Shown here: positions 2,957 through 37,411 of the stretch, one piece after another | Layout of the letters: the number at the start of each line of letters is the position of its first letter | How positions within the stretch are numbered: the first letter of the stretch is position 1 | Position numbers and translations under genes: made by a program | Notes under the pieces: generated by a model | What the model was told of the DNA's origin: nothing | Seen by the model: only the letters and a program-made list of their open reading frames with translations | The model's database searches: none | Assembly: GCA_019637815.1 (NCBI GenBank) | Contig: JAHBUZ010000011.1 | Span: forward strand, 18,758-82,757 | Direction of reading: 5' to 3' | DNA from: Chloroflexota bacterium | GTDB taxonomy: Bacteria > Chloroflexota > Limnocylindria > Limnocylindrales > CSP1-4 | Length of the DNA: 64,000 nucleotides

Positions 2957-3694
2957 TCATCCGACCACGTCCGGGGTCATCGCGCCGAAGAACAACCGCT
3001 GGCCGTTCTCGCCGAGGACCGCATCGGTGACCGGATCCGGCAGACCGCTCACGCGCACCTTCGCGAGCTCCACCGACAGATGATGGAAGGGGGCGTCGGA
3101 GCCGAACAGGACCCGGTCGGGACCCACCCGTTCCACCGCCTCGCGGATCTTGGAGTGCATCGGCATGCCCGAGGTCTCCAGGTACACCCGCGGATTGCGG
3201 GCCGCGACGTCGATCGATGCGTTGATGTAGACGATGTTGCCATGTCCCATGTGGCCCAGGATCACGGACACATCCGGGAACCGGCGGATGAGCTCCTCGA
3301 TGCTCCATGGCAGCGAGAAGATGGGATGGCCGCAGTGGATGAGGACCGGCAGCCGACGCTCCCGGAGCACCTCCATGACGGGGTGCACCATCGGGTCATC
3401 GGGGTGATAGCCGTCCAGCAGCGGGTGGAGCTTCACGCCCCGGAACCGCGAGCCCGGTTCGTCCAGGAGGTCCACGAGCGTGGTCACCGCGTCCGGCATG
3501 CGGGGGTTCACCCACACGAGCCCGTACAGACCGGGGGTCCGGCCGATGATGTCCCGCACCAGCTGATGATCCGGATGGAACACCATGCCCGTGGCGACCC
3601 CATGCTCACGCATCGTGGCGACCAGGCCATCCCGATCGATGGACACACCGAAGTACGGGAAGTCGCCGACGTGCATGTGGCTGTCGAGCACCAT
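2957..3694 (-). CDS. amidohydrolase-2 family metal-dependent hydrolase (the family includes LigI-type and sugar lactonases)
   Basis: The N-terminus MVLDSHMHVGDF carries the HxH metal motif, and the sequence has TIM-barrel amidohydrolase_2 features. The ATG at 3694 gives a 246-aa protein. Confidence 0.7.
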   Translation of the reverse strand: MVLDSHMHVGDFPYFGVSIDRDGLVATMREHGVATGMVFHPDHQLVRDIIGRTPGLYGLVWVNPRMPDAVTTLVDLLDEPGSRFRGVKLHPLLDGYHPDDPMVHPVMEVLRERRLPVLIHCGHPIFSLPWSIEELIRRFPDVSVILGHMGHGNIVYINASIDVAARNPRVYLETSGMPMHSKIREAVERVGPDRVLFGSDAPFHHLSVELAKVRVSGLPDPVTDAVLGENGQRLFFGAMTPDVVG

Positions 3695-3717
3695 CGATGT
3701 AGTATGCCGTGTGGCAG

Positions 3718-3732
3718 TGTTGACAGTCAACA
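3718..3732. promoter_or_regulatory. candidate GntR-type operator, a perfect 7-1-7 palindrome TGTTGACaGTCAACA
   Basis: Perfect inverted repeat in the 109-nt divergent region between the amidohydrolase (minus) and the GntR regulator (plus). It fits the GntR/FadR consensus NyGTNxACNy. Confidence 0.35.
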
Positions 3733-3803
3733 AGTCGAACGTGTCGGTCGCGGCCTCGGGCTGCGGGTATCCTGTCGCTGGCGAACAGAGGGAAAGGCGG
3801 GCG

Positions 3804-4532
3804 GTGGACGGCTTCGACAACAAGACGCTTCGTGAGCGTGTCTACGAGCACCTGCGGGACGGCATCCTCGGTGGCCGCATCGCGCCCGGCACCGTGCTCC
3901 AGGAGGTGCCGCTCGCGGGATCGCTCGGCGTCAGCCGGGGACCCATCCGGGAAGCGCTGGGCGACCTCGCCGCCGAGGGCCTCGTGACCATCACCCCACG
4001 CCGCGGCGCCATCGTGACCACCCTCACGCGCCATGACTTCCTCGAGGCATACCAGGTCCGCGAAGGGCTCGAGGTCCTGGCGGTCCGGCTGGCGCTCCCG
4101 ATCATCACCGACGCGACGTTCGAGATGTTCGAGCGGACCCAGGCGCGCATGATGGAGTGCGCCGCGACGGATGACTTCCTGGGCTTCTACGACGCCAACG
4201 TCGAGTTCCATGAGGGGTGGGTCATCGCCTCCGGCAACGGCAAGCTGCTGGAGGTCTATCGTCGACTGATGGGCCAGCTGGTCGTGTATCGGCGGCCGTC
4301 CGCGCTCCTCCGTGGCGGCCTCGACCGCTCCATCGCCGAGCACACCGCGATCATCGAGGCGGCGAAGGCCGGCGATACCGAGTCAGCGTCGGCGCTCATG
4401 GCACGACACATCCAGGTGCCCCAGGTGCGGGTCGAGACGATGACCGAGGAGGAGTTCGCCCAGCAGGCACAGGTCGGGCTCCAGTCCCTGGCGTCGCTGG
4501 GAGCACGCGAGCCCGCTGCTCTTCGGCGCTGA
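3804..4532 (+). CDS. GntR-family transcriptional regulator (FadR/FCD subfamily)
   Basis: N-terminal winged-HTH sequence (TLRERVYEHLRDGILGGRIAPGTVLQEVPLAGSLGVSRGPIREAL) plus a C-terminal FCD-like domain. The likely start is GTG 3804, downstream of a GGAAAGG RBS. Confidence 0.8.
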   Translation: MDGFDNKTLRERVYEHLRDGILGGRIAPGTVLQEVPLAGSLGVSRGPIREALGDLAAEGLVTITPRRGAIVTTLTRHDFLEAYQVREGLEVLAVRLALPIITDATFEMFERTQARMMECAATDDFLGFYDANVEFHEGWVIASGNGKLLEVYRRLMGQLVVYRRPSALLRGGLDRSIAEHTAIIEAAKAGDTESASALMARHIQVPQVRVETMTEEEFAQQAQVGLQSLASLGAREPAALRR

Positions 4533-4566
4533 GTCCCGGCTGGCGGCGACCGCGACGAGGGGGGTC

Positions 4567-5637
4567 ATGCCAGGACCGTCGGTGATGACCGTGACCGGCT
4601 CGGTCAGCGCATCGGATCTCGGCATCGTCCTGCCCCACGAGCACCTCGTATCGGACTGCACGCCCTACTACGTCGCCTCGCCGGATCCGGAGCGCGCCCG
4701 CATCGGTGCCGGACCCGTGGACATCACCACGCTCCACCTCCTGCGCCGTGACCTGTTCGCGATCCGCGACAACCTGCTGCTCGACGATGTCGACCTCGCC
4801 GTCACGGAGGTCGCCGCGTTCCAGGCATCGGGCGGCCGGACCATCATCGACACCACGCCACCGGACGTCGGTCGCGACCCGGTGGCCCTGCGGCGGATCG
4901 CGGAGCGGTCGGGTCTCCACCTGATCATGGGCTGCGGCCACTACGTCCATCCGGTCCACCCGCCCAGCCTCGAGCACGAGCCCGTGGAGTCGATCGCGGA
5001 CCGGCTGATCGCCGAGATCGAGGGCGGGGTGGCGGACACGGGTATCCGGCCCGGCATCATCGGGGAGCTGGGGACGTGGGACCCACTCCATCCACGCGAG
5101 GAACGCGTGCTCCGCGCCGCGGCGCGCGCCCAGCGGGCCACGGGCCTGGCCATCAGCGTCCACGTCCACATCGCTGCGCGGACCGCGCTGCGGGTGCTGG
5201 ACGTCCTCGAGGACGCAGGTGCCGACCCGACCCGCGTGATCCTCGGCCATCTCGACATCGAGCTGGGTCACCTGGACACGACCGAGGCCGAGGTCATCGA
5301 GCACCATCGTGCGGTCGCAGCGCGGGGCGCCTACGTCGAATACGACACCTGGGGGACGGAGGTGTTCGCGCCGCGGTCGCCCGTCACGCCGCCGTTCTGG
5401 ACACCGAGCGACCTCACCCGTGCCCGAGCCATCGCACGGCTCGTGGAGGACGGCTACGGTGACCGGTTGCTGCTGTCCCACGACGTGTTCACGAAGAGCC
5501 AGCTGCTGCGCTACGGCGGCTTTGGCTACGGCCACATCCTGCGCGACACCCAGTACCGCTTGCGAGAGGTGGGCCTGACCGACACGGACATCGACCGGAT
5601 GCTCATCGAGTCCCCGAGGCGCGTCCTCGCTGGCTGA
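4567..5637 (+). CDS. phosphotriesterase-family protein (PTE-like lactonase/PHP homolog), paralog 1
   Basis: HEHL metal-binding motif near the N-terminus with a TIM-barrel PTE-family signature. The gene sits 35 nt after the GntR stop. Confidence 0.8.
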   Translation: MPGPSVMTVTGSVSASDLGIVLPHEHLVSDCTPYYVASPDPERARIGAGPVDITTLHLLRRDLFAIRDNLLLDDVDLAVTEVAAFQASGGRTIIDTTPPDVGRDPVALRRIAERSGLHLIMGCGHYVHPVHPPSLEHEPVESIADRLIAEIEGGVADTGIRPGIIGELGTWDPLHPREERVLRAAARAQRATGLAISVHVHIAARTALRVLDVLEDAGADPTRVILGHLDIELGHLDTTEAEVIEHHRAVAARGAYVEYDTWGTEVFAPRSPVTPPFWTPSDLTRARAIARLVEDGYGDRLLLSHDVFTKSQLLRYGGFGYGHILRDTQYRLREVGLTDTDIDRMLIESPRRVLAG

Positions 5638-5653
5638 CGAGCGGACGACCCGT

Positions 5654-6670
5654 TCAGCCCGCGGGCGGCGCGGTCGATGCGCGAACCACCAGCTCGGGGG
5701 CATCCTCGATCATCTGATCCCGGGCAGGCACGCCGGCGACGGCGTCGAGGAGCATCCGGACCGCCTCCTCGCCCATGCGCGAGTTGGGCATCCGCACGGT
5801 CGTCAGGGCGGGTGCGGTGTGCGCCGCGAACGGATGGTCGTTGAAGGCGACGATGGACACATCCTCGGGCACCCGGCGACCCGTGGCCCGCAGCTCCGCG
5901 AGCGCACCGATGGCACTCATCAGGCTCGCCACGAAGTAGGCCGTCGGCGGGTGGGCGCCGGCACTCGCCAGCACCGAGCGCATGGCGCGTCGCCCGCCGT
6001 CCTCGGTGGGAGGCGCGGCGGCCAGCCAGCCGGGTTCGATGGGGATACCCGCACCGGTCATGGCGCGGCCATAGCCCGTCAGCCGCCGGCGCGCCGTGTC
6101 GGTGTCGGCATCGATGCCCAGGAAGCCGACCCGTCGATGTCCGAGGCCGACGAGGTGCTCCACGGCCATCCGGCTGCCACGCTCGTCATCCACGACCACC
6201 GAGCCGTGGACACCACTGGTGCGCCGATTGACGAGCACGAGCGGCATGCCCCGTTCCGCGAGCTGTGCCACGAGACCATCATCCACGGACGCGAAGGCCA
6301 CGATGAGCCCGTCCACACGCCCATCGGCGACGAGCCGCTCCGAGACGTCCTGCATCGCATCGGGCACCGCGCTCGCCTCGATGACCATGACCATCCGGCG
6401 CGCTGCGGCCGCTGCGGCCTGGATCCCGTGCGTGACATCCGCGAAGCCGAGGTTGTCGAGACTCGGGATGACCAGGCCGATGGTGTCGGTGCGTCGCGTG
6501 CGCAGGCCGCGCGCGAGCGCGTTCGGTCGATAGCGCAGCTCCCGGGCCGCATCGAGGATCCGTTCCCGGGTCTCGGGTCGGACCTGCTGGTTCGGGTCGT
6601 TGCGGAGGACCCGCGACGCCGTCGACGGGTCGACGCCCGCGCGTCGTGCGACATCCTTCAGATTGGCCAC
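5654..6670 (-). CDS. LacI-family transcriptional regulator (paralog 1)
   Basis: N-terminal HTH (MANLKDVARRAGVDPSTASRVLRN) plus a periplasmic-binding-protein-like sugar-binding domain. GTG start at 6670. Confidence 0.85.
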   Translation of the reverse strand: MANLKDVARRAGVDPSTASRVLRNDPNQQVRPETRERILDAARELRYRPNALARGLRTRRTDTIGLVIPSLDNLGFADVTHGIQAAAAAARRMVMVIEASAVPDAMQDVSERLVADGRVDGLIVAFASVDDGLVAQLAERGMPLVLVNRRTSGVHGSVVVDDERGSRMAVEHLVGLGHRRVGFLGIDADTDTARRRLTGYGRAMTGAGIPIEPGWLAAAPPTEDGGRRAMRSVLASAGAHPPTAYFVASLMSAIGALAELRATGRRVPEDVSIVAFNDHPFAAHTAPALTTVRMPNSRMGEEAVRMLLDAVAGVPARDQMIEDAPELVVRASTAPPAG

Positions 6671-6807
6671 AGCGTTCGCTCCTGCTCATCGCACCGCTCC
6701 CCGATGGCGGCCCCGCCGGGTGCAGATGGTGGCAGGGTTCGGCCCGGGATGCGAGCCCTCGATGCGATCGAGGTCAGCGGCGCCTCGCCGACGGGCACGA
6801 ACGAGCG

Positions 6808-8076
6808 TCAGCCCTCGTCCGATGCCCGGTCGTCGACGGGCGCTCCCACGAGCGACGGCCCACCGATGATGCCGGCGGCCCGCAACCGCTCCAGCTCCGC
6901 CTCCGAGCGCCCCAGCTCGTCACCCAGCACCGCTCGATTGTCCTGCCCCAGGTCGCCACCCAGGTGCCGGACACGACCGGGCGTCAGGGTCAGCCGCGGG
7001 ATGGCGTTCTGCACGCGCGTCCGACCGAGCCGCGGATCATCGACGGTCGTGATGGTGTCCCGGGCGATGTACTGGGGGTCCTTGAAGATGTCCGAGATGT
7101 CATAGATCGGCCCGACCACGGCCTGCTCGCGCTCGAAGGCCTCCAGCACCTCCGCGAGGGTGTGCTGCCCGATCCAGTCACCGATGTAGCGGTTCAGCAG
7201 GTCCTGGTGCTCCACCCGTCCGGCATGGTCTCCGAACCAGGGCTCATCCACGACCTCGGGATGGCCCACGAGTCGGAGCACCCGGTCGGCGATGGACTGG
7301 GAGCTGGCGGACAGGCCCAGCCACTTGCCGTCGCTGGTCTGGAAGGCGTTGCGGGGCGCCGTCCAGTCCGTGCTGCTGCCCGTGCGGTTCTGGATGTAGC
7401 CCAGCTGGTCGTAGACCAGCGCCTGGGGCCCCAGCAGCCAGAACAGCGGCTCGTAGATGGCGAGGTCGATGACCTGGCCAGGCCCGCCGTTCACCGTCCG
7501 ATGCCACAGCGCGAACATCGTCGCGAAGGTCCCGAACATGGACGCGACACCGTCACCGAGCGCGAAGGGCGGCAGGGTGGGTGGCCCGTCCGGCTGGCCA
7601 TTGATGTGGGCATAGCCGCTGATCGACTCCGCCACCGTACCGAAGCCCGGCCGCGGGCTGTAGGGCCCGGTCTGGCCATAGCCCGAGCAGCGCACCATGA
7701 CCAGGTCCGGGTTGATGGCGTGGAGCACGTCCGGTCCCAGGCCCCACCGCTCGAAGGTGCCGGGTCGGAACGACTCGATGAGCACGTCCGCGTCCTTGAC
7801 CAGCTCCTTGAGCAGCTCGGCGCCTTCCGGCTCCCCGAAGTCGATGGACACGAGCCGCTTGTTGCGACTCACGAACGCCCACCAGAGCGAGACGCCGTCC
7901 TTCTGCCAGCCGAGCGTCCGCAGCGCATCCCCGCGCGGATGCTCCACCTTGATGACATCCGCGCCGAAGTCCGCGAGCAGGGTGCCGATGACGGGCCCCG
8001 CGAACAGGACCGCGGCGTCGATGACCTTGAGACCGGCGAGAGGGCCGGGCGAGGTCCCGGTGTCAGGGGGCGTCAC
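6808..8076 (-). CDS. family III CoA-transferase (CaiB/BaiF, formyl-CoA-transferase-like)
   Basis: The N-terminus (GLKVIDAAVLFAGPVIGTLLADFGADVIKVEHPRGD) is the classic family-III signature. GTG start at 8076. Confidence 0.85.
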   Translation of the reverse strand: MTPPDTGTSPGPLAGLKVIDAAVLFAGPVIGTLLADFGADVIKVEHPRGDALRTLGWQKDGVSLWWAFVSRNKRLVSIDFGEPEGAELLKELVKDADVLIESFRPGTFERWGLGPDVLHAINPDLVMVRCSGYGQTGPYSPRPGFGTVAESISGYAHINGQPDGPPTLPPFALGDGVASMFGTFATMFALWHRTVNGGPGQVIDLAIYEPLFWLLGPQALVYDQLGYIQNRTGSSTDWTAPRNAFQTSDGKWLGLSASSQSIADRVLRLVGHPEVVDEPWFGDHAGRVEHQDLLNRYIGDWIGQHTLAEVLEAFEREQAVVGPIYDISDIFKDPQYIARDTITTVDDPRLGRTRVQNAIPRLTLTPGRVRHLGGDLGQDNRAVLGDELGRSEAELERLRAAGIIGGPSLVGAPVDDRASDEG

Positions 8077-8149
8077 GTCGCTGCGATCTCCGATGGCCCG
8101 CTGATGCGGGTCATCCGCCCGCCAGCGACAACGCGCATCCTAGGCCATA

Positions 8150-8163
8150 GACAATCGCTTGTC
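8150..8163. promoter_or_regulatory. candidate LacI-type operator GACAATCGCTTGTC
   Basis: Inverted repeat (arms GACAA/TTGTC around a central CG) about 75 nt upstream of the CoA-transferase start. It is near-identical to the palindrome at 40615..40632. Confidence 0.35.
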
Positions 8164-8186
8164 GAGAGGGCGATCCAGCGTACCGG

Positions 8187-8888
8187 TCAGAACCCGCCGT
8201 TGGCGGTCCAGCCGCCGTCGAGCAGAACGGCCGTGCCGGTCGCGTAGCTGAACGCGCCCCCCGCCAGCGCGACGATCGACCGCGCGATCTCGTCGGGCTG
8301 GGCGAGCCGGTCCATGGGCGTGCGACCCAGGATCGCCGCCTCCGACACCCAGCCGCCCTCGATACCCGCGACCACCATCTCGGTGGCCACGAACCCCGGG
8401 CTCACCGCGAGCACCCGGATGCCATCGGTCGCCCACTCCTGGCCCAGGACCTGGGTGAGCATCACCACCCCGGCCTTGGCAGCACAGTAGTTGGCACGAC
8501 CCGCGAACGCCCGATGTCCCGCGATCGACGCCACGTTGACGACCACGCCACGGCCGGCCCGGAGCGCGGGATACAGTGCCTGGGCACAGTAGAACGTCCC
8601 GGACAGGTCGACGTCGATGACCCGGCGCCACTGCTCCACGCGCATCGTGGCCGCGGGCGCGCGGTCGGCGATGCCCGCCGCGTTGACGAGCAGCCCGACC
8701 TCGCCCACCTCGGCTGCGGCCGCGGCGACGGAATCCGGGTCGGCCACGTCCACGCGGGTCCAGGCGATCCCGTCGAGCCGAGGCGCGCCGATGTCCCAGC
8801 CGCGCACCTCCCAGCCTGCCGCGAGGAGGGCCCGGGCCGTCGCCTCGCCGATGCCCGATGAGACACCCGTGACGACCGCGAGGCTCAC
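8187..8888 (-). CDS. SDR-family oxidoreductase
   Basis: Gly-rich NAD(P)-binding motif (VVTGVSSGIGEA) and YxxxK (YCAAK). The GTG start at 8888 overlaps the stop of the upstream SDR by GTGA. Confidence 0.75.
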   Translation of the reverse strand: MSLAVVTGVSSGIGEATARALLAAGWEVRGWDIGAPRLDGIAWTRVDVADPDSVAAAAAEVGEVGLLVNAAGIADRAPAATMRVEQWRRVIDVDLSGTFYCAQALYPALRAGRGVVVNVASIAGHRAFAGRANYCAAKAGVVMLTQVLGQEWATDGIRVLAVSPGFVATEMVVAGIEGGWVSEAAILGRTPMDRLAQPDEIARSIVALAGGAFSYATGTAVLLDGGWTANGGF

Positions 8889-9682
8889 CTGGTCTCGAGG
8901 CCGTACGCCTCGATGAGCGTCGGATCCACGGGATACACGTAGCAGCGCGCCGTCGCGCCGCCGTCCACGGGGAGGCACTGCCCGGTCACGAACGAGGCGT
9001 CCTCCGAGAGCAGGAACGACGCCACGGAGCCGACCTCGGACGCCTCGCCGACCCGGTTCATGGGATGGATGGCGGCCATGTCCCGCTCCATGCGCGCCGG
9101 GTCGGGGTCGCTGTCGATGACCCGCTGGAGGAGCTCCGTGCGCATGGCGCCAGGCTCGATGGCGTTCGCCCGGATGCCCACCGGGCCGTACTCCACCGCG
9201 ATGTAGCGGGTGAGCGCGTTGATGCCGCCCTTCGCGGTGTCATAGGCGGCCCAGCCCGTGAACGCGGCGCGCGCGTGGATGCTCGAGATATTGACGATGG
9301 CTCCTGGGCTGCGCTGCGCCACGAACTGCTGGATCGCCTCCGAGCAGCCCCAGTAGTAGCCCATGAGCGAGACCCGGAACAGCCGCTCCACCTCGTCCTG
9401 GACCGGGTCATGGAGGTTGCCCGGCAGCGGCAGCGCGGCGTTGTTCACCCAGCCACCGAGCGGCGCCAGCTCGACCGCGCGATCCCGCGCCCGTCGCAGG
9501 TCCTCCCGGGAACCGGCATCACCCGTGATGACGTCACCCGCGCCCGCGACGCTCCGCGCATCGGCGGCACGGGTCTCGTCCAGCTCCAGGCCGACCACCG
9601 CCCAGCCGTCCCGGATGAGTCGCTCGAAGATCGCCCGCCCCAGCCCGGTGCCACATCCCGTGACGACCACGCTCCGTGTCAT
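8885..9682 (-). CDS. SDR-family oxidoreductase
   Basis: MTRSVVVTGCGTGLGRA and YDTAK motifs. ATG start at 9682. Confidence 0.8.
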   Translation of the reverse strand: MTRSVVVTGCGTGLGRAIFERLIRDGWAVVGLELDETRAADARSVAGAGDVITGDAGSREDLRRARDRAVELAPLGGWVNNAALPLPGNLHDPVQDEVERLFRVSLMGYYWGCSEAIQQFVAQRSPGAIVNISSIHARAAFTGWAAYDTAKGGINALTRYIAVEYGPVGIRANAIEPGAMRTELLQRVIDSDPDPARMERDMAAIHPMNRVGEASEVGSVASFLLSEDASFVTGQCLPVDGGATARCYVYPVDPTLIEAYGLETR

Positions 9683-13051: not shown

Positions 13052-13064
13052 ACCCGTCCCTCGC

Positions 13065-15664: not shown

Positions 15665-15763
15665 GACCATCCTCCTCGTCCATCCGCGGCAGCAGTCAAA
15701 CGATTTCCTGCCTGCCCTGTCGGGCAGTGTGGCGCGCTGGCACCGTCGGTGTCAAGTGGGCAG

Positions 15764-15781
15764 CGGACCGGTAGCGGTCCG
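15764..15781. other. hairpin-forming inverted repeat CGGACCG-gtag-CGGTCCG between LacI-2 and the SBP
   Basis: 7-bp perfect arms with a 4-nt loop, in the 162-nt gap between the LacI stop and the SBP start. It could be an attenuator/terminator or a protein-binding site. Confidence 0.25.
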
Positions 15782-15826
15782 GTGGCAGAAGTCGCGCGCG
15801 TGGCGGGGTCATCGCCGCACGACCGG

Positions 15827-26699: not shown

Positions 26700-26708
26700 G
26701 GTGCTGCC

Positions 26709-27185: not shown

Positions 27186-27249
27186 CGGGAACCTCCGGAG
27201 TGACGCGACAAGGATGGGAGCGGGAGCGGCGACTGCGGTCGAGGGTGGG

Positions 27250-28398: not shown

Positions 28399-28439
28399 TT
28401 CACTGGCCTGACCAGTCTAACGACCGGCGGCACCGAGGG

Positions 28440-29258: not shown

Positions 29259-29560
29259 CGCGACACCTCCTGGTCGGCCCAGCTGGCGGGGTCGTTGGGA
29301 TGGGCGGCGAGCGGATGCACCGTCGCCACGAGATGCGGGAACATGGGCAGCGAGGCGAGCGCGGTGTGCAGCTCGGTCGCGTCCGCCGCGTGCCAGATGC
29401 CCCAGTTGGCGCGCTGGCCGGGGATACGCCAGAGACGCTTGAGCGTGCCGCTCGCGCCGAGCTCGCGGGCGCGCTGACCCTCCGCGGCGATCAGCCGCTG
29501 CTGCTCCTCGGGCGTGATGCCCGCCGGCCAGGTGAACGTGATGTGCACCAGGAAGTCCAT
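29255..29560 (-). CDS. muconolactone delta-isomerase-like small protein
   Basis: About 101 aa. The sequence MDFLVHITFTW...ATELHTALASLPMFPHLVATVHPLAAHP resembles the CatC/MIase fold. ATG at 29560 with a GAGGAG RBS. It overlaps the SDR start by GTGA. Confidence 0.5.
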   Translation of the reverse strand: MDFLVHITFTWPAGITPEEQQRLIAAEGQRARELGASGTLKRLWRIPGQRANWGIWHAADATELHTALASLPMFPHLVATVHPLAAHPNDPASWADQEVSR

Positions 29561-30485: not shown

Positions 30486-31315
30486 TTCACGGCTCCTGCG
30501 GTGATGCCACGCACGATGTAGCGCTGCACGAACAGCGAGAACACGAAGATGGGGATGATGGTCACGACGCCCACCGTGGCGGCCACGTTCCAGTCGATGG
30601 GTCGCTGCGCGGAGATGAGCCCGGCGGCGCCGAGCGGGATCGTCTTGAGGCTCTGCGAGTTGACGATGTACATGCCGACCAGGAACTCGTTCCAGATGAA
30701 GATGGCCGCGAAGATCGAGGACACGATGAGCCCCGGCCGCACGAGCGGCAGCATGACCGAGGTGAGGACACGGAAGCGGCTGCACCCGTCCACCATCGCG
30801 GCATCATCCAGCTCCCGGGGGATCTCGTCGAAGAAGCCGATGAGGATCCAGATCACGAGCGGCAGGCTGAACGCCACGTACGGGATCACGAGGCCCGGCA
30901 GGGTGTCGTCGAGGTCCAGGAACCGCATCATCAGCAGGATCGGGATGGCCACGGCCACCGCGGGCATGAAGCGCAGGCTCAGGACCGTGTTCGCCCAGCC
31001 GTCCCGACGTCGGAACGGGATGCGCGAGAAGGCATAGGCGGCCGGGGTCGCGACCAGGAGCGCCACGATGACCGTGAGCGTCGTCACCACGATGGAGTTC
31101 AGGGTGTACCCCAGGAATCCCCGGTCGATGAGCACGTTCCGGTAGTTCGAGACGATCTGGTCGATGTCGAAGTCCAGGGTGGGCGGCACCTGGAGGATCT
31201 CGATGCGCGCCTTGGTGGAGAGCAGCAGGATGACCACGAACGGTGCGAACCCGATGATGCCGATGAGCACGAGGAGCAGGTACGCGAACGCCCGCTCGAT
31301 GCGACGCGTGATCAT
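30482..31315 (-). CDS. CUT1-type ABC sugar permease (MalG/UgpE-like)
   Basis: EAA-loop-type permease with six TM helices. The ATG at 31315 overlaps the upstream permease stop by ATGA. The track ORF's 146 N-terminal codons lie in the neighbour gene's other frame. Confidence 0.8.
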   Translation of the reverse strand: MITRRIERAFAYLLLVLIGIIGFAPFVVILLLSTKARIEILQVPPTLDFDIDQIVSNYRNVLIDRGFLGYTLNSIVVTTLTVIVALLVATPAAYAFSRIPFRRRDGWANTVLSLRFMPAVAVAIPILLMMRFLDLDDTLPGLVIPYVAFSLPLVIWILIGFFDEIPRELDDAAMVDGCSRFRVLTSVMLPLVRPGLIVSSIFAAIFIWNEFLVGMYIVNSQSLKTIPLGAAGLISAQRPIDWNVAATVGVVTIIPIFVFSLFVQRYIVRGITAGAVK

Positions 31316-32220
31316 CGAGCGTCCGCCCGGCGCAGCGCGAGACGTGCCGCGAGGACCATGAACGCGACCGTCGCCACGATGACCATCACGTACGAGATCG
31401 CCGACGCGTAGCCGTAGCGCGTGAAGCTGAAGCCGGTCTCCCAGGCGTAGAAGCTGAGCGTGGTGGTGAGCCGGCCCGGACCGCCGTACGTGAGTCCGAA
31501 CACCACGTCGAACGAGCGGAACGCATCGATGGAGCGGAACACGGCCGCGAACGCGATGGCCGGCGCCAGCAGCGGCAGGGTCACCTGGCGCAGGGTCGCG
31601 ATGCGTCCTGCGCCGTCCACGGCGGACGCCTCGAACACGTCGCGGGGCAGCGCCTGGAGTCGTGCGAACACGATGACCATGATGAATGGCGTCCACTGCC
31701 ACGAATCCACGAGGACCAGCGTGACGAGGGCCAGCTTCGGGTCCGCGGTCCACAGTGGCTTGGGCAGGCCCAGCTCGCCCAGCAGCCAGTTGACCATGCC
31801 CCAGTCAGGGTTGAGCAGCGCCCGCCACATGAGCCCCACCACGACCGGGGTCAGCAGCATCGGCAGGATGAGCACGCCCCGCACGAACCACGATCCGCGC
31901 AGGTGGAGGTCGAAGAACAGCGCGAGCGCCGTGCCCAGGACCACCTGGATGGCGATGGACGCGACGACGAGGATGCCGGTGTTGACCGCGGCCTGCCAGA
32001 ACACCGCGTCGCGGGCGAGCATCGCGTAGTTGTCCAGCCCCACGAACGTGAACGAGCTCGTGGTCGGGCTCCAGTCGAAGAAGCTGATGCCCAGGCTGTA
32101 GACGAGCGGGAAGACGGAGAACAGGACGAGATAGGCCGCGGCCGGCGAGATGAGCAGCAGGATGTCCCGCCGCGTGTGCAGCGGGTGCGCGGTGCGCATC
32201 GGTGGGGTCGTGGTCGTCAC
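31312..32220 (-). CDS. CUT1-type ABC sugar permease (MalF/UgpA-like)
   Basis: Typical MalF-type topology and motifs (ALPRDVFEASAVDGAG). Confidence 0.8.
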   Translation of the reverse strand: MTTTTPPMRTAHPLHTRRDILLLISPAAAYLVLFSVFPLVYSLGISFFDWSPTTSSFTFVGLDNYAMLARDAVFWQAAVNTGILVVASIAIQVVLGTALALFFDLHLRGSWFVRGVLILPMLLTPVVVGLMWRALLNPDWGMVNWLLGELGLPKPLWTADPKLALVTLVLVDSWQWTPFIMVIVFARLQALPRDVFEASAVDGAGRIATLRQVTLPLLAPAIAFAAVFRSIDAFRSFDVVFGLTYGGPGRLTTTLSFYAWETGFSFTRYGYASAISYVMVIVATVAFMVLAARLALRRADAR

Positions 32221-32307
32221 GGTCCTGTCGTGCCGGCTCGGTCGACGTGTGAGGCGGTGGCCGCGTGGGCCACCGCCTCGTGAAGGTCCGCTATCGGTGG
32301 TCCCTGG

Positions 32308-33777
32308 TCACTCGGCCAGGTGGCCACCCGCCTTGAGGATCGTCTCGGCCGCGGCCTGGGCGTTGGCCATCGCCGTCTCGGCGTCCTGGGCACCCGTGAG
32401 CGCGAGGTTGATCTCCCGGGCCACGGCACCCACGACCTCGAAGGCCTCGGGGATGGTCGCGACCTCCAGGATCTGGGCGCTCTCGATGGCACCGACGGCC
32501 GCGGGGATGTACGGCAGCGCCGCGACGATCTCCGGGTCCGAGCCGGTGGAGATGCGGTTCGGGTCCGTCTGGTAGGTCATGACCTGGTACTTCTCGAACT
32601 CCTTCGAGGTGATCTGGGTCAGGAGCAGCCAGGCGCAGTCCTTGTTCTCCTGGGGCAGGTTCTTCGCGATGCCCAGGCCCCAGCCACCGCGGACACCCCG
32701 CGGGTTGCCGTCCTCGGCAGGCATCGGCGCCACCGCGACGGTGTCCTTGACCGGGGAGTCGGGACCGTACAGCGCGCCTGCGATGGTCGCCCACGCCGGC
32801 CACATCGCGACACGACCGGTCATGAACGCGTCCATGGCCTCCGTGAAGCCGTAGCTGGTCACCGCGGCCGGCGAGGACGGCAGCAGGTCGATCATGTTCT
32901 GGAGCGCCGCGACGGCCTCCGGGCTGGTGAGGTTGGTGTTGAGCGTCTGGTCCGCCTTGCTGCCCGTGGTCAGCTGGCCGCCCATGGTGATGAAGCGGCT
33001 GTACCAGTCCACCAGGAAGCCGGAGACATCGTTGGCGCCCACCATGGCGCTGCCGGCGACGTCATCGGTCGTCAGCTGCTGCGCGGTCGCGAGGTACTCC
33101 GCCCAGGTCGTGGGCACGGGCGGCTGGCCCTCACCACCCAGCAGGTCGCTGCGATAGAACAGCAGCACGGAGCCGCTGTGGATGCCCGGGATGAGGTACA
33201 GCTGGTCACCGCCGAACTCACCGGACTCGACATCGAAGTAGCCGGTGTACTCCAGCTGGCCGGCCGGGAAGTCCGCGAAGTCGTAGTCCGCGGGGGTCTT
33301 GGACGCGTCGTTCAGGTACGGCGTCAGCTCCTCGAGGAGCCCGGCGCCCGCCGTCCCCGCCACGTTGAAGCCGATGGTGTGGATGATGTCGAACGCCGAC
33401 TCCGGCGCACGCAGGTTCTGGGCGAGCGACTCGTTCAGCTGGCCGAGCGCCATCGTGGTGAGCTGGATGTCGATGCCGGTCGCGGCCTCGATCTCCGCCT
33501 CCTTGTCGCGCAGGCCGAAGTCGTCCCGCTCGCCATCCACGAGGGCGATACGCACGACCTTGCCGGCGCACGCCATGGGGTCGAACGTGCCACCGGACTG
33601 GGCGCTCACGGTGGCGAACGACAGGCTGGAAGCGGCCACGACGCCGCCGATGCCCAGCGCGCTCAACCGTGCCACGGAGGAACGGCGACGCCGTCCCCCC
33701 GACACCCGATGGCGAGCTGGCGAGCGTCCGGCCCCGCTGGCCGGGGTCACGTGATCCACGACGAGTTCCTCCTCCAT
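32308..33777 (-). CDS. CUT1 extracellular solute-binding protein (family 1)
   Basis: Twin-arginine/Sec-type signal (RRRRSSVARLSALGIGGVVAASSLSFATVSAQS) followed by SBP_bac_1-like domains. Start at ATG 33777 is uncertain. Confidence 0.75.
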   Translation of the reverse strand: MEEELVVDHVTPASGAGRSPARHRVSGGRRRRSSVARLSALGIGGVVAASSLSFATVSAQSGGTFDPMACAGKVVRIALVDGERDDFGLRDKEAEIEAATGIDIQLTTMALGQLNESLAQNLRAPESAFDIIHTIGFNVAGTAGAGLLEELTPYLNDASKTPADYDFADFPAGQLEYTGYFDVESGEFGGDQLYLIPGIHSGSVLLFYRSDLLGGEGQPPVPTTWAEYLATAQQLTTDDVAGSAMVGANDVSGFLVDWYSRFITMGGQLTTGSKADQTLNTNLTSPEAVAALQNMIDLLPSSPAAVTSYGFTEAMDAFMTGRVAMWPAWATIAGALYGPDSPVKDTVAVAPMPAEDGNPRGVRGGWGLGIAKNLPQENKDCAWLLLTQITSKEFEKYQVMTYQTDPNRISTGSDPEIVAALPYIPAAVGAIESAQILEVATIPEAFEVVGAVAREINLALTGAQDAETAMANAQAAAETILKAGGHLAE

Positions 33778-33852
33778 GGGATCGCGCGGCGGTCGAGGGT
33801 GCATCACCCGACCGCGTCGATGGCGCGACCGTACCGCAACGATCGGGCCCAT

Positions 33853-33869: not shown

Positions 33870-33921
33870 CGATGTCGCGGACCCCGGACCATCCCGGCCG
33901 ATGCCAGCCGCGCGCGTGGCG

Positions 33922-34431
33922 TCAGGGTGCGCCGATCCTCGCGGGTCGGCGCGCGACCGGGCGATCCACCTCGTCGACGACCGCGACCACGCGCCCGGTC
34001 TGATCGAGGCCGGTGATGGTCCGCGTCACCAGCCCGACGTCCGCCCGGGGGCCCTCGCGGACCACCTCGATGCGCGACTCGGCGACCAGGGTGTCGCCCG
34101 CCACCACGGGACCCGTCAGTCGGATCGATCGCCAGCCCGTGGCCCGCGTCGCGGCGGCCACCGATGGCGGCGGCACGGCGGGCTCGGCGAGCCCGATGAC
34201 GATCGCGGCGGTCAGCGCACCCAGCACGAGCGGCTCCCCGAACGCTCCCTGCGCGGCGGCATGCCGGTCGCCGTGGACGTCGCTCACGTTGTGGGTGACC
34301 CAGGCGAGCCAGACATGCTCCGAGTCATCGAGCGTCCGGCCATGCGCATGACGGATGACCACCCCCGGGACGGCGTCCTCGAACCACCAGCCGGTGTCGG
34401 CGCCCGCGATCACACGAGTCCCTGGCGCCAT
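33922..34431 (-). CDS. MaoC-like (hot-dog fold) dehydratase/hydratase, paralog 2
   Basis: Clear paralog of the MaoC protein at 43103..43669 (shared blocks GWWFEDAV..., VAGDTLVAESRIEVV). Start at ATG 34431 (alternative TTG 34455). Confidence 0.7.
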   Translation of the reverse strand: MAPGTRVIAGADTGWWFEDAVPGVVIRHAHGRTLDDSEHVWLAWVTHNVSDVHGDRHAAAQGAFGEPLVLGALTAAIVIGLAEPAVPPPSVAAATRATGWRSIRLTGPVVAGDTLVAESRIEVVREGPRADVGLVTRTITGLDQTGRVVAVVDEVDRPVARRPARIGAP

Positions 34432-34447
34432 CGCCGACCCGTCCGGG

Positions 34448-35587
34448 TCAGCCAAGGTCCGCGAGGATCCCGACCGGGTCGTCGTGGGGCTGGCTGCGCA
34501 CCCAGTCGATATCGACCATGTGACCGAAGCCCGGCAGCTCGGGGAGTGGCGCCATCAGCCCGCCATCGAGGATCACGGGCTGGGGCAAGGGGTCGTCCAT
34601 CGGGTGGACACCCGTGTCCGGGATACCCCACTCGATGGGTCGGTCGGCGTATCCCAGCGCAGCGAGGACCTGGCTGTGGACGTGCGGGAACATGTGGGGC
34701 GCGAAATCGAGACCCGCAGCGAGCGCCTGGTCGATGACCCGCCGACCGCGCGTCAGACCGCCCATGCAGGTGAGGTCGACCCGCACGACATCCACGGCGC
34801 CGGCCGCGATGAGGGCCTCCGGGAAGTAGCTGCCGCCCTGCTCATCGCCCATCGCGATGGGCACCTCGATGCGGTCGCGGAGCTGTCGCAGGATCCCCGC
34901 GTCCCCGGGCGGGAAGATGTCCTCGAACCAGCCCAGGCCCACGTCCGGGATGGACTCGATGAAGCTGGCCGCCGTCTCCACGTCCTCGTAGACCCACGCG
35001 GCGTCCATGCCCAGCCACGCGTCGGGTGCTGCGGCACGTGCCGCCCGCAGGCGCGCGGCGCTCCGCTCGGCGGCACCACCGATGGGTGCCTTGAAGCGGC
35101 GCCAGCCGGCCGCATACAGCACCGCGGTCTGGGCGCCGGTCTCCTCGGGCCCCATGGTGCCCGGCGGGTAGCCGATGATCGCGGTCGCTGGCATCGGCTC
35201 GTTGTGACCGCCGAGCAGGCCCGCGATGGACAGGTCACGCAGCTTCGCAGCGGCATCCCAGCAGGCGAGGTCCACGATGGACAGGGCACGCAGCCCGATG
35301 CCCGCCGCGTGCGATGCCAGGCTCCGACGCCATGCGACCGTGAACGTCCGCTCCCGGTCATCGATGGTCGTGCCCACGTACAGCGCCGCGATCGTCTTGC
35401 GGATCTGCTCCGCGACCGCGCCGTCACGGGTGAGCGTGTACATCAGGCCATCGACGCCCCGGTCGGTGCGCACCCGCACGAGCGCGAACTCGCGAGAGCG
35501 CATGATCCACTCGCCGAAGATGACCGGCGCGGGGAGCTGGGCCTGGATGGTCATCACGTCCACGGACGTGATGGTCGCGCTGGTCAT
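34448..35587 (-). CDS. enolase-superfamily protein (MR/MLE family; probable sugar-acid dehydratase), paralog 2
   Basis: Start MTSATITSVDVMT at 35587 with a GGAGGA RBS. Co-linear with paralog 1 (FGEWIMRSREF, KAPIG, MGDEQGGSY). Confidence 0.8.
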   Translation of the reverse strand: MTSATITSVDVMTIQAQLPAPVIFGEWIMRSREFALVRVRTDRGVDGLMYTLTRDGAVAEQIRKTIAALYVGTTIDDRERTFTVAWRRSLASHAAGIGLRALSIVDLACWDAAAKLRDLSIAGLLGGHNEPMPATAIIGYPPGTMGPEETGAQTAVLYAAGWRRFKAPIGGAAERSAARLRAARAAAPDAWLGMDAAWVYEDVETAASFIESIPDVGLGWFEDIFPPGDAGILRQLRDRIEVPIAMGDEQGGSYFPEALIAAGAVDVVRVDLTCMGGLTRGRRVIDQALAAGLDFAPHMFPHVHSQVLAALGYADRPIEWGIPDTGVHPMDDPLPQPVILDGGLMAPLPELPGFGHMVDIDWVRSQPHDDPVGILADLG

Positions 35588-35621
35588 GGGTCCTCCGGAG
35601 ACAGCGGGTGACGGAGCGCGC

Positions 35622-36449
35622 TCAGGCGCCCTCGTGGATCTGGGTCGAGCCGGCGCTGCTGGCCCAGGCGCCCTGGGCCAGGAAGCCACCATCGACGGCG
35701 AGATAGCCGCCGGTCATGAAGCTGGAGCGGTCGCTGGCCAGGAACAGCGTGGCCTGCGCGATGTCCTCCGGCAGGCCGAGACGGCCGAGCGGGTGGAAGG
35801 CGCCATAGCGTGCGAGCGTCGCATCGAGGTCGCCGCCCTCCGCGCGCGCCGCGGTCCGGACCATCTCCGAGTCCATGGTGCCCGGACAGATGGCGTTCAC
35901 ACGGATGCCGTCCCGCGCATAGTCGAGGGCCATGTTGCGGGTGAGCGAGAGCACGCCGCCCTTGCTCGCCGCGTACGAGGGGACGCCGGGCATCGACTGG
36001 ACACCCTGGACGCTCGCCATATTGATGACCGAGCCACCCGGTCCCTGCGCCCGGATGTGGGGCAGGGCGTACTTGGACATCAGGAACTGGCCCTTCAGGT
36101 TGACCCCCAGGATGCGATCCCAGACCTCCTCGGGGGTGTCCTCGACGCGGAAGTACCAGTCGACGGGCTGGATGCCCGCGTTGTTGACGAGCACGTCGAG
36201 CCGACCGAAGGCGGTGACCGTCTCGGCCACCATCCGCTGGGCATCCCCGGACGACGAGACATCGCCGATGGTCGCGATGGCTCGCACGCCGCCCGCTGCC
36301 AGCTCTGCCGCCAGGCGCTCCGCGGCGGCCCGGTCCACGTCCGCGATGGCGACCGACGCGCCTTCGCGCGCGAACGCTCGCACGATGCCCTGGCCGATGC
36401 CCAGGGCTCCACCGGTCACCAGGACGGCCCGGCCGTCGAACTCTCCCAT
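35622..36449 (-). CDS. SDR-family oxidoreductase
   Basis: AVLVTGGALGIGQG and YAASK motifs. ATG at 36449 with a GGAGG RBS. Confidence 0.8.
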   Translation of the reverse strand: MGEFDGRAVLVTGGALGIGQGIVRAFAREGASVAIADVDRAAAERLAAELAAGGVRAIATIGDVSSSGDAQRMVAETVTAFGRLDVLVNNAGIQPVDWYFRVEDTPEEVWDRILGVNLKGQFLMSKYALPHIRAQGPGGSVINMASVQGVQSMPGVPSYAASKGGVLSLTRNMALDYARDGIRVNAICPGTMDSEMVRTAARAEGGDLDATLARYGAFHPLGRLGLPEDIAQATLFLASDRSSFMTGGYLAVDGGFLAQGAWASSAGSTQIHEGA

Positions 36450-36469
36450 GTCAGCCTCCGGCGCCATGT

Positions 36470-37411
36470 TCAGTCTCCGATCTCGTCACGGGTGGGGTGG
36501 AAGAGCGGCTTGCCGACGAGCCCGGGGACCCGGAACCGGGTCACGTGCCAGCGCCCGATGTTGGGGGTCAGGATGACGTCCCGGTCGGGACCTGCGAACA
36601 CCACGTTGGTGGGTGCGGCCAGTGCGGTCCCCTCGGGGTCGTGGGCCAGCACCTGGAGCCCCAGGTCCGCACGCCAGCGATACACGACATCGGGCCGGTA
36701 GCACGCGATGACCACCGAGCCGTCCGTGGCGAAGGCGACGCCGTCGGGCACCGTGCCCGGCAGCTCCACCAGGAGCCGCCGTGGCCCCGCCGAGCCATCG
36801 GGCAGGATGTCGAACGCGACCAGCGCCCCGGGCGTGGACTCGAGGACCCATATCTCCTGGCCGTTCGGGTGGACCGCGAGACCGTTCGGGAAGTCCCGGC
36901 TCTCCCGGGTCCAGACGCTGGTGCGCTCCGTGGCAGGGCCGGCACCCGGCCGCACCACGATCACGCTGCCGTCCGGCTGCTTCCAGTGACCGGAGTCGGT
37001 GACATAGAAGCTGCCATCGGGCCCGAACGCGCCCCAGTTGGGTGTCACGAACGGGATGCCGGGTGCGCCGCTGGTCCAGGGAACGGGGTCCCCGCCACCG
37101 GGTGTCCAGCGCATGACCGCGCCGCGCTTGGGGTCACAGGCGTAGACACGCCCCTCCCCGTCCGTGGCGAGGCCCAGGGTCCAGCCGCCGGTCGTGGTCA
37201 CCTCGTGCGCGGTGCCGTCCTCGTCCACCCGGTAGATCTGGCCCTGCTCGCCGCTGACGTAGATGGTGCCGTCGGGCGCGACGCAGATCCCCTCCGCATG
37301 GTCGATACCCGCGGCGATCTGCTCCAGTGCGTCGAGCGCGATGATCGGCTCCATGGCTCCTCCCACCCGCCACCCGGGCTCGGCTGCGCGGTCCACGACG
37401 TGGCGACTCAT
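36470..37411 (-). CDS. SMP-30/gluconolactonase/LRE-family protein, paralog 3
   Basis: SGL beta-propeller repeats. The ATG at 37411 overlaps the permease stop by ATGA (alternative start MEPIIALD at 37354). Confidence 0.8.
   Translation of the reverse strand: MSRHVVDRAAEPGWRVGGAMEPIIALDALEQIAAGIDHAEGICVAPDGTIYVSGEQGQIYRVDEDGTAHEVTTTGGWTLGLATDGEGRVYACDPKRGAVMRWTPGGGDPVPWTSGAPGIPFVTPNWGAFGPDGSFYVTDSGHWKQPDGSVIVVRPGAGPATERTSVWTRESRDFPNGLAVHPNGQEIWVLESTPGALVAFDILPDGSAGPRRLLVELPGTVPDGVAFATDGSVVIACYRPDVVYRWRADLGLQVLAHDPEGTALAAPTNVVFAGPDRDVILTPNIGRWHVTRFRVPGLVGKPLFHPTRDEIGD

Follow-up and report, generated by a model that had tools for sequence, protein, structure and literature searches.

Seven candidate hydrolases of three lactonase-capable superfamilies probably have different roles in a mosaic catabolic island of a Chloroflexota genome

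The 64,000-nucleotide stretch analyzed here (the window; positions 18,758 to 82,757 of contig JAHBUZ010000011.1, assembly GCA_019637815.1) comes from a Chloroflexota metagenome-assembled genome (MAG) and contains, within 35 kb, seven candidate hydrolase genes: three of the phosphotriesterase (PTE) family (PTE1-3), three of the SMP-30/gluconolactonase (SGL) β-propeller family (SGL1-3) and one of the Amidohydro_2 family (AH2). A sequence-only reading had taken them for an exceptionally dense set of lactonases serving oxidative, non-phosphorylative sugar routes, or other lactones such as acyl-homoserine lactones. We found that the clustering exceeds chance and that the 35-kb stretch, rather than being one system, is pieced together from at least six units with separate regulation. 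With moderate confidence, we conclude that the seven hydrolases have different jobs in this island, the SGL proteins as lactonases, the PTE proteins as accessory enzymes and AH2 as part of an operon for a vitamin-B6-type compound. A likeness to sugar-lactone hydrolases is confined to the three propeller enzymes; the remaining four proteins stand in different contexts.

Results

Clustering of the hydrolase genes and layout of the island

Genes were called by third-position G+C and frame plots (the window has ~70% G+C) and then checked against Pfam; further protein families were scored with NCBIfam models, whose equivalog or subfamily cutoffs are given with each result. The seven open reading frames were found at the positions, and with the Pfam domains, that had been claimed for them, and all retain their catalytic residues. 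Their third-position G+C was 0.85-0.93, and exact or near-exact copies of island proteins have NCBI entries from a Chloroflexota MAG (MBX3030466, -477, -478, and -486). In a second, syntenic MAG (L004), 20 island genes keep their order at 82-99% amino-acid identity; dN/dS against L004 was 0.02-0.16 in all genes tested, including PTE3 (0.107), PTE2 (0.150), and SGL1 (0.142). The low dN/dS shows purifying selection on these three hydrolases and, together with the synteny and identity, indicated that the genes are real and functional.

The ~20 genes that fill the other 27 kb of the window include no member of the PTE, SGL or Amidohydro_2 families. A search of the GTDB species representatives with a narrower PTE alignment gave 42 loci, mostly from Dehalococcoidia, SAR202 and other Chloroflexota; none exceeded 39% identity, meaning that the MAG's own lineage is absent from those matches. 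Among 41 PTE-centered loci of ~21 kb in other genomes, a second PTE was present in two, an SGL in one and an SDR in 12. At 30-40% identity the neighborhoods of this PTE clade were not consistent, so that evidence from gene context is valid only within close orthologue groups. A Poisson test on seven hydrolases in 35 genes gave P ~1e-8, and P was still ~3e-4 when the background was raised five-fold. The test assumes independent genes, whereas catabolic operons cluster, and takes a rough background from the published counts of SAR202 strain JH545 (11 COG3386 and 9 COG3618 in ~2,860 coding sequences, the per-genome numbers of SAR202 group I). On these three comparisons, the claim of exceptional density stands.

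The 44 genes between positions 54 and 44611 form a catabolic island of ~44 kb. Up to 40815, almost all of its 39 genes lie on the minus strand; five genes on the plus strand (40891-44611) complete it. The units each have their own binding-protein-dependent ABC transporter and/or LacI/GntR regulator (Table 1). Start/stop overlaps of 4 nt (RidA/476-aa protein, 476-aa protein/PTE2, permease/SGL2, and permease/SGL3) fit co-translation inside operons. Two MR_MLE, six SDR, three SGL and three PTE genes were counted in the whole window (64 kb). All seven hydrolases had been placed in contexts of sugar ABC transporters, SDRs and dehydratases; this does not apply to AH2 and PTE1.

SGL propellers and operons D and E

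SGL1, SGL2, and SGL3 scored 70, 98, and 72 bits, respectively, to PF08450 (cutoff 26.3), SGL1 and SGL3 being 43% identical. Glu, Asn, Asn, and Asp at the metal-site positions (E15, N102, N148, and D195 in SGL1 numbering) were invariant across the three proteins with matching spacing, the site being assigned by motif and spacing rather than by structure-based residue alignment. This pattern corresponds to the calcium ligands E15, N123, N172, and D229 of Rpa3624 (7ris/8djf), a broad-specificity β-propeller lactonase of Rhodopseudomonas palustris; of these residues, E15 and D229 recur in every solved propeller lactonase and are required for activity (PMC9843451). Rpa3624 prefers hydrophobic lactones, is inactive on gluconolactone and has no activity on acyl-homoserine lactones. 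The AlphaFold model of SGL1 (pLDDT 88) was a six-bladed propeller with 24 strands, whose best PDB match on superposition was Rpa3624 (TM 0.87), followed by SMP30 and XC5397 (0.81-0.83) and by DFPase and Drp35 (~0.8). In sequence searches of solved structures, Rpa3624 was again nearest to SGL2 (E 5e-19), and SGL1 and SGL3 gave weak NHL-like matches. Rpa3624 is the closest solved relative at ~25% identity, with XC5397 and SMP30 close behind. We regard SGL2 and SGL3 as putative metal-dependent propeller lactonases, and SGL1 is probably one as well.

Operons D and E share one layout, in which the binding protein, two permeases and the SGL gene are followed by an SDR and an enolase-superfamily dehydratase, and their transporters are of the CUT1 type; SGL1 closes a third sugar-type operon (operon C). 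The core of operon D and its gene order are conserved in a third Chloroflexota MAG (L008). The enolase-superfamily proteins of both operons obtained their best scores with the talarate/galactarate, mannonate, and rhamnonate dehydratase models, none of them anywhere near the cutoff, with 116 bits for acid-sugar dehydratase vs. 45 bits for muconate cycloisomerase. The NF005559 "glucose 1-dehydrogenase" subfamily cutoff (215 bits) was passed by the SDRs of operon E (248 bits) and operon C (225.5 bits), the SDR of operon D falling just under it (201.9 bits). Operons D and E therefore both carry, next to a CUT1 transporter, the SDR, SGL and MR_MLE proteins that would make up a set of sugar dehydrogenase, lactonase, and aldonate dehydratase. 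This oxidative route from SDR through SGL to the enolase-superfamily enzyme is the best-supported part of the idea put forward in the sequence-only reading.

Identity between operons D and E was 28-52% per component (52% for the enolase-superfamily proteins), and the two binding proteins showed no significant similarity to each other. A recent tandem duplication was rejected on account of these values and of the unrelated binding proteins. The two operons appear to be old paralogous modules and, because their binding proteins differ, they would take different substrates.

Between SGL2 and the SDR, operon D encodes a muconolactone-isomerase-family protein (29255-29560, minus strand) that matches PF02426 (100 bits) but does not reach the NCBIfam equivalog cutoff, and L008 keeps a protein of this family at the same place in a sugar-type operon. 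It might be a mutarotase-like enzyme or a lactone isomerase; our literature search gave nothing usable on a mutarotase role of this family, nor on DUF4432. The co-occurrence of MR_MLE and muconolactone-isomerase-family proteins had prompted a muconate/β-ketoadipate interpretation of operon D, which was discarded since the enolase-superfamily proteins score as acid-sugar dehydratases and the CUT1 transporter is of a sugar type.

PTE-family proteins

PTE1, PTE2, and PTE3 matched PF02126 over its full length (218, 185, and 193 bits, respectively; cutoff 22.4) and keep the binuclear metal ligands in the motifs HEH, IGE(L/V)G, VH, GH, and S(H/M)D, with Glu as the bridging residue; alignment to 3k2g and 9efa confirmed the register of the ligands in PTE1 and PTE2. 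Because this HxH/Glu/His/His/Asp set is kept, the three proteins are probably active binuclear metallohydrolases.

The nearest solved structure was Rsp3690 (3k2g) for PTE1 (250 bits) and for PTE2 (211 bits, with 200 bits for 9efa), similarity to both proteins decreasing in the order Rsp3690, PTER-type 9efa, and Pmi1525 (3rhg); for PTE3 it was E. coli PHP (1bf6/4lef; 161 bits). As compared with these 161-250 bits for Rsp3690 and PHP, PTE-like lactonases (PLLs), Dr0930 and true phosphotriesterases scored ~100-130 bits. PTE1-3 do not fall into the PLL clade, given that the bridge is Glu and not carboxylated Lys and that Dr0930, the Geobacillus PLLs, and M. tuberculosis PPH scored 104-116 bits. 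Neither do they group with PTER or with the phospho-furanose lactonases (NF045706; 70.9, 56.3, and 54.8 bits vs. a cutoff of 630), and no sugar kinase was found in operons C or D. Scores to the PHP equivalog NF007373 (cutoff 486) were 185.4 bits for PTE3, 123.4 for PTE1 and 108 for PTE2, and all three proteins were nowhere near the NCBIfam OPH cutoff. Judged by clade, which the sequence-only reading had itself named as what could refute its lactonase assignment, the PTE proteins fall outside the known lactonase clades by both the Glu bridge and the scores. By homology, PTE1-3 would belong to a clade without a known natural substrate.

Animal PTER is an N-acetyltaurine hydrolase. In sponge PTER, the sulfonate-binding residues His206, Arg209, Arg238, and Tyr268 were described together with Tyr131 and the proposed proton donor His305 (PMC12873775). 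In our reading of the 9efa alignments, with the 9efa chain numbering taken as that of the paper + 2 (itself inferred), the changes were R209P, R238P, Y268R, H305A, and Y131F in PTE2, and R209I, R238I, Y268P, and H305F in PTE1; the metal ligand His206 is kept in both and Tyr131 in PTE1. Since the residues of the substrate pocket are replaced on this numbering, a PTER-like amidase function was rejected for PTE1 and PTE2.

PTE1 is strain-variable. The segment that holds it (4533-5650; 1,118 bp) is absent from a strain contig (L052) that is 99.7-99.97% identical on both sides and has 9 nt in its place, and a further contig (L053) ends exactly at 4532. The segment has no flanking direct repeats and its G+C (70.7%) is native-like. 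PTE3 is present in L004, whereas L008 lacks it although the remainder of operon D is conserved there; PTE3-like proteins with ~43% identity that sit in unrelated TetR/MMPL contexts were set aside.

Operons C and D each hold a PTE and an SGL, which makes it unlikely that the two families catalyze one step, and PTE2 and PTE3 probably perform a step other than that of the SGL in the same operon. This sharing of operons speaks against a simple redundancy of lactonases, as had been proposed.

RidA, the AraA-fold protein and PTE2 in operon C

PTE2 is always preceded by the gene of a 476-aa protein in the orthologous clusters of three lineages (L001, L002/L003, and L004), and the gene order of operon C is syntenic with L001, L002, and L004. 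The AlphaFold2 model of the 476-aa protein (pLDDT 95.4) matched L-arabinose isomerase (AraA) over the full fold in Foldseek (TM 0.75-0.81 at ~15% identity); a weak match to the sulfoquinovose isomerase SftI was also obtained, and distant homologues carry PF11762, the C-terminal domain of AraA. The RidA-family gene, which lies under a longer spurious open reading frame, was recovered by tblastn with the RidA of L004 (93% identity) and matched TIGR00004 (E 6e-14).

In two soil-metagenome relatives (L002:4445-10047 and L001:4712-10047) the order is SDR-PTE-SDR-RidA-isomerase-PTE, with two PTE paralogues and no SGL, which makes PTE multiplicity a feature of the lineage. Elsewhere, the 476-aa protein occurs with RidA, VOC, DUF4432, SDR, and CoA-transferase (L006) or after operon D (L008). 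These neighbors suggest a functional link among units B, C, and D.

AH2 and the vitamin-B6-type operon

The true start of AH2 is at MVLDSHMH, giving 245 aa instead of the 288-aa open reading frame, and an exact 245-aa protein is on record. Its family comprised 1,873 matches, the best 120 of these being listed at 66-100% identity. All 33 PDB matches of the family profile at E ≤ 1 belonged to the decarboxylase/hydrolase branch (3cjp, LigW, γ-resorcylate, salicylate, and 2,3-dihydroxybenzoate decarboxylases, ACMSD, IDCase, and LigY), and no LigI, L-fucono- or L-rhamnono-lactonase (COG3618) entry was among them.

The binding protein encoded next to AH2 passed the cutoff of NF047927, "putative B6 ABC transporter substrate-binding protein" (413.7 vs. 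400 bits), and scores across the AH2 operons of the window and its relatives were 391-423 bits; the literature gave nothing usable on the origin of this family name. The divergent arrangement of GntR and AH2 recurs in L006, L007, and L052. In the distant genomes L006 (8001-16741) and L007 (2636-11397), the operon, with GntR divergent, consists of AH2, Bmp, ATPase, two permeases, COXG, a class-V aminotransferase and a FAD subunit. The aminotransferase scored 453-463 bits to NF046070 (pyridoxamine-pyruvate transaminase) vs. 209 bits to the next family, and the FAD subunit, of a molybdenum hydroxylase, scored best as aldehyde/xanthine dehydrogenase type. From the binding-protein equivalog and the scores of the aminotransferase and the FAD subunit, AH2 is assigned to a locus for uptake and catabolism of a vitamin-B6-type compound and not to a sugar operon. 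Our preferred guess is that AH2 would be a decarboxylase acting on an ortho-hydroxy pyridine carboxylate; a pyridoxolactonase is the alternative. Of the proposed oxidative sugar-lactone scheme, the part that concerns the SGL proteins stood (E/N/N/D site, propeller fold, and SDR/enolase operons), whereas AH2 drops out of it by its decarboxylase branch and its B6-type operon.

Other genes of the window

Unit B contains no candidate lactonase, and its gene order is kept in L004 (Pfam and NCBIfam). Its Lyase_1 protein is 3-carboxymuconate-cycloisomerase-like (379 bits vs. a cutoff of 595). At the end of the island, the HpcH-like gene at 41805 scored as CitE/malyl-CoA lyase type. The genes related to CoA esters (40891-44611, 6808-8076, and 33922-34455) resemble a module for itaconate or C5-dicarboxylate degradation; the RipB/Ich-like MaoC hydratase scored 207 bits (cutoff 340), and the E2-type acyltransferase (305 aa) consists of the catalytic domain only.

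The other ~20 kb of the window are mostly occupied by housekeeping genes (PEP carboxylase, PDH E1, sigma factor, Ada, and 5'-3' exonuclease). Outside the island, an 876-aa protein (55297-57927, minus strand) has two stretches of a PQQ-type glucose/sorbosone dehydrogenase domain; as another propeller enzyme, it would produce aldonolactones. In the 567-aa open reading frame at 51194-52897 (plus strand), the proline-racemase-family domain covers only residues 225-564, reflecting either an over-called start or an N-terminal extension.

Table 1. Units and genes of the catabolic island, with positions in the window; names denote predicted families.
Feature	Position	Strand	Description
Unit A1		-	AH2, Bmp-type binding protein, ATPase, running past window start; GntR/FCD divergent
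Double-domain ATPase and Bmp binding protein (start of B6-type ABC transporter)	54-2823	-	ATPase 54-1727 (ABC_tran x2); Bmp binding protein 1768-2823; gene ends mapped from L052
AH2	2957-3694	-	245 aa; first gene of B6-type operon; PF04909 E 7e-32
Unit A2			GntR/FCD, then PTE1 35 nt downstream
GntR/FCD regulator	3717-4532	+	divergent from AH2; Pfam GntR and FCD
PTE1	4567-5637	+	35 nt downstream of GntR; Rsp3690-like; PF02126 E 2e-64
Unit B	5654-16876	-	two LacI, ribose-type ABC transporter, Lyase_1, DUF4432, two SDRs, CoA-transferase III
Unit B, part 1		-	LacI 5654-6670; CoA-transferase III 6808-8076; SDR 8187-8888; SDR 8885-9682
Unit B, part 2		-	DUF4432/aldose-epimerase-like 9679-10665; Lyase_1/ADSL_C 10662-12053; permease 12050-~13063
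Unit B, part 3		-	ATPase 13065-14675; Peripla_BP_4 binding protein 14672-15670; LacI 15827-~16876
Operon C			ATPase, permease, binding protein, SDR, RidA, 476-aa protein, PTE2, SGL1; LacI divergent
SGL1	16920-17762	-	last gene of operon C; Pfam SGL (PF08450) E 3e-19
PTE2	17854-18930	-	start overlaps stop of isomerase-like gene; PF02126 E 2e-54
L-arabinose-isomerase-fold protein	18927-20357	-	476 aa; no Pfam match; start fixed by orthologue alignment
RidA-family protein	20354-20689	-	111 aa; overlaps isomerase-like start by 4 nt
Rest of operon C		-	SDR 20728-21525; Peripla_BP_4 binding protein 21595-22629; permease 22656-23795; ATPase 23792-24553; Pfam
LacI	24611-25762	+	divergent from operon C; Pfam
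Operon D			binding protein, two permeases, SGL2, muconolactone-isomerase-family, SDR, enolase-superfamily, VOC, PTE3
PTE3	25746-26699	-	PHP-like; last gene of operon D; PF02126 E 7.5e-57
Operon D enzymes	26709-29560	-	VOC/glyoxalase 26709-27158; enolase-superfamily dehydratase 27250-28386; SDR 28440-29258; muconolactone-isomerase-family 29255-29560; Pfam
SGL2	29586-30485	-	299 aa; ATG and ribosome-binding site; directly after operon D permeases; Pfam SGL E 8.5e-28
Operon D transporter	30482-33852	-	BPD_transp_1 permeases 30482-31315 and 31312-32220; SBP_bac_1 32308-33852 (start uncertain)
Operon E			binding protein, two permeases, SGL3, SDR, enolase-superfamily, MaoC
Operon E enzymes	33922-36467	-	MaoC-like hydratase 33922-34455; enolase-superfamily dehydratase 34448-35587; SDR 35622-36449/36467
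SGL3	36470-37411	-	start overlaps permease stop; Pfam SGL E 8e-20, and NHL
Operon E transporter	37408-40815	-	BPD_transp_1 permeases 37408-38241 and 38284-39210; SBP_bac_1 39244-40815 (start uncertain)
CoA-ester/kinase unit	40891-44611	+	ends the island; E2-like acyltransferase, CitE/malyl-CoA-lyase-like, RipB/Ich-like MaoC hydratase, PfkB kinase

Discussion

Proposed roles of the hydrolases and competing explanations

In the explanation that we favor, an SDR would oxidize an imported sugar to its lactone, SGL2, SGL3, and probably SGL1 would hydrolyze the lactone to an aldonic acid, and the enolase-superfamily dehydratase would turn this acid into a 2-keto-3-deoxy acid, operons D and E being presumed paralogous copies of the module with differing substrates. 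PTE1-3, of the Rsp3690/PHP type, would most likely cleave a carboxylic ester or lactone bond as accessory or pathway-specific additions, not as duplicates of the SGL step. PTE2 may work with RidA and the L-arabinose-isomerase-fold enzyme in operon C, PTE3 seems to have been tacked onto the end of operon D, and PTE1 would be a strain-variable element behind GntR. AH2 would belong to a different operon, also conserved, through which a vitamin-B6-type compound is taken up and broken down.

Several observations weigh against this explanation. PTE-family enzymes can be lactonases, as is the case for Dr0930, the PLLs, and Lmo2620, so that a lactonase role is conceivable for PTE1-3 too. Known non-phosphorylative routes continue with a 2-keto-3-deoxy-acid aldolase, with a 4-dehydrogenase plus an FAH-type hydrolase, or with a dehydratase plus a semialdehyde dehydrogenase. 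No aldolase of the DHDPS or HpcH type, FAH or aldehyde dehydrogenase was found in operons C-E, although such genes may be elsewhere in the genome, and operons D and E carry VOC, muconolactone-isomerase-family, and MaoC proteins instead. Rpa3624, the nearest solved SGL relative, hydrolyzes hydrophobic lactones and not gluconolactone. With regard to AH2, the downstream B6-type genes were observed in the relatives L006 and L007, the window ending inside the transporter, and the aminotransferase of these relatives stays below its 600-bit equivalog cutoff. Only the B6-type binding protein reaches an NCBIfam equivalog cutoff and no enzyme here does; from the protein families, catalytic residues, folds, operon conservation and selection observed we therefore infer every substrate and reaction step.

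That all seven proteins are lactonases, conferring a very broad oxidative sugar-lactone repertoire, is quite unlikely. In its favor, lactonases are known from all three families, the region is rich in SDRs, enolase dehydratases and sugar-type ABC transporters, and SAR202 offers a precedent. However, AH2 falls into a decarboxylase branch and a B6-type operon, PTE1 is strain-variable and not in a sugar operon, PTE2 and PTE3 each share an operon with an SGL, and PTE1-3 lie outside every characterized lactonase clade tested. A somewhat different view is that the substrates are mainly non-sugar lactones and carboxylic acids (e.g., plant or microbial hydrophobic lactones, muconolactone-type compounds or Baeyer-Villiger-derived lactones from alicyclic matter), which would be channeled into CoA esters. 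The substrates of Rpa3624 would agree with it, as would the presence in the island of a muconolactone-isomerase-family protein, Lyase_1 (3-carboxymuconate-cycloisomerase-like), CoA-transferase III, two MaoC proteins and a CitE-like lyase, and the SAR202 literature proposes lactone intermediates from monooxygenases. We consider this view unlikely, given that the island has no monooxygenase or ring-cleavage dioxygenase, that the transporters are of CUT1/CUT2 sugar types, that the enolases fit acid-sugar dehydratases over muconate cycloisomerases, that the partner of PTE2 has an aldose-ketose isomerase fold, and that ~25% identity to Rpa3624 is too low to carry specificity.

The PTE proteins could be PTER-like amidohydrolases that remove acyl groups from N-acyl amino compounds or from amino sugars, while RidA acts on a later imine; the helical insertion of 9efa is found in PTE1 and PTE2 too, their scores to this structure are 189-200 bits, and RidA is located in operon C. 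This is very unlikely in view of the replaced taurine-sulfonate contacts (Arg209, Arg238, and Tyr268) and proposed donor His305, again on the inferred + 2 numbering, and of the higher scores of PTE1 and PTE2 to the esterase Rsp3690. PLLs and some propeller enzymes hydrolyze acyl-homoserine lactones, and quenching of quorum sensing by the PTE or SGL proteins could be conceived on that general basis. Nevertheless, such activity is hardly credible here and found no support: PTE1-3 have the Glu bridge instead of the carboxylated Lys of PLLs and score ~100-116 bits to PLL/PTE structures vs. 161-250 to Rsp3690/PHP, Rpa3624 lacks the activity, and all the genes lie in nutrient-uptake operons.

Going beyond the favored assignment of different jobs, it is conceivable, albeit doubtful, that the PTE2/RidA/isomerase-fold triad constitutes a new sugar or amino-sugar route and that, jointly, the AH2 operon represents a new Chloroflexota route of B6 degradation. 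PTE2 would then open an ester or lactone that the propeller lactonases cannot handle, the triad being present in at least three Chloroflexota lineages. In the B6 route, AH2 would act either as the hydroxypyridine-carboxylate decarboxylase or as a pyridoxolactonase, and the strain-variable PTE1 would hydrolyze pyridoxolactone as an optional extra. If true, these readings would give two orphan enzyme clades their first physiological roles and the PTE clade its first physiological substrate.

Dehalococcoidia and SAR202-type Chloroflexota are thought to use dilute and diverse carbohydrate-like matter through many parallel oxidation pathways. The island, compact and well assembled, represents a lineage of high G+C that is probably related to soil, and a second MAG conserves it. 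Operons D and E offer concrete sets of transporter, SDR, SGL, and dehydratase for biochemistry, and orphan PTE-family enzymes are placed in defined operons, where their substrates may be guessed from binding proteins and neighbors. It also calls for caution in annotation, as three lactonase-capable superfamilies side by side do not equal seven lactonases.

Comparison with known systems

Rsp3690 and Pmi1525 have the same HxH/E/H/H/D ligands and the same insertion after strand 1 as PTE1 and PTE2, and Rsp3690 has the motif SHDVF.K in common with PTE1. Unlike in those systems, the PTE genes are here embedded in or appended to transporter operons, and in PTE2 a Phe replaces the conserved Tyr of GYY. 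Rsp3690 and Pmi1525 are reportedly promiscuous PTE-family carboxylesterases, according to work of the Raushel laboratory, and to our knowledge their natural substrates are not known. E. coli PHP is, like PTE3, a short form without most of the helical insertion and with a Glu bridge; we know of no established physiological substrate for PHP itself, and our literature search gave nothing usable on sugar-lactonase work with it. Rpa3624 shares the calcium-site pattern with SGL1-3 at ~25% identity, and the SGL genes differ in standing in sugar-type operons beside SDR and acid-sugar-dehydratase-like genes.

Pathway I of vitamin B6 degradation in Mesorhizobium loti comprises pyridoxamine-pyruvate aminotransferase, pyridoxal 4-dehydrogenase, 4-pyridoxolactonase, and pyridine-dicarboxylate decarboxylase. 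The AH2 operon likewise encodes a binding protein of B6 type, joined in relatives by a pyridoxamine-pyruvate-transaminase-like enzyme, whereas a molybdenum-hydroxylase-type oxidoreductase and an Amidohydro_2 protein replace the enzymes of M. loti. Genes for the later, ring-opening steps of that pathway were not found in the DNA examined.

SAR202 Chloroflexota have parallel non-phosphorylative pathways for sugars and sugar acids with expanded sets of SDRs, lactonases, and enolases (Lim et al., 2023, PMC10444878; Saw et al., 2020, PMC6946804). Their repeated modules of dehydrogenase (COG1028), lactonase, and enolase-superfamily dehydratase (COG4948) are matched in the island, and their divergent COG4948 paralogues, which fall below any characterized family, are echoed by the island enolases. 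The phylum is shared, whereas membership of the MAG in the SAR202 clade is not established, and the MAG differs from SAR202 systems in its ~70% G+C and in having its nearest relatives in soil-type metagenomes. The lactonase step of the island is assigned to SGL propellers, where the pathway scheme for SAR202 shows COG3618 enzymes; uptake proceeds by ABC systems, and PTE-family genes are interleaved. In those parts of the supplementary files that were accessible, the lists of abundant COG sets of SAR202 do not include COG1735. As far as we could find, the SAR202 literature does not describe interleaved Rsp3690/PHP-type PTE genes, the RidA/AraA-fold/PTE triad or an AH2-headed B6-type operon. The island is a new, compact example of SAR202-type multi-pathway scavenging in a high-G+C lineage.

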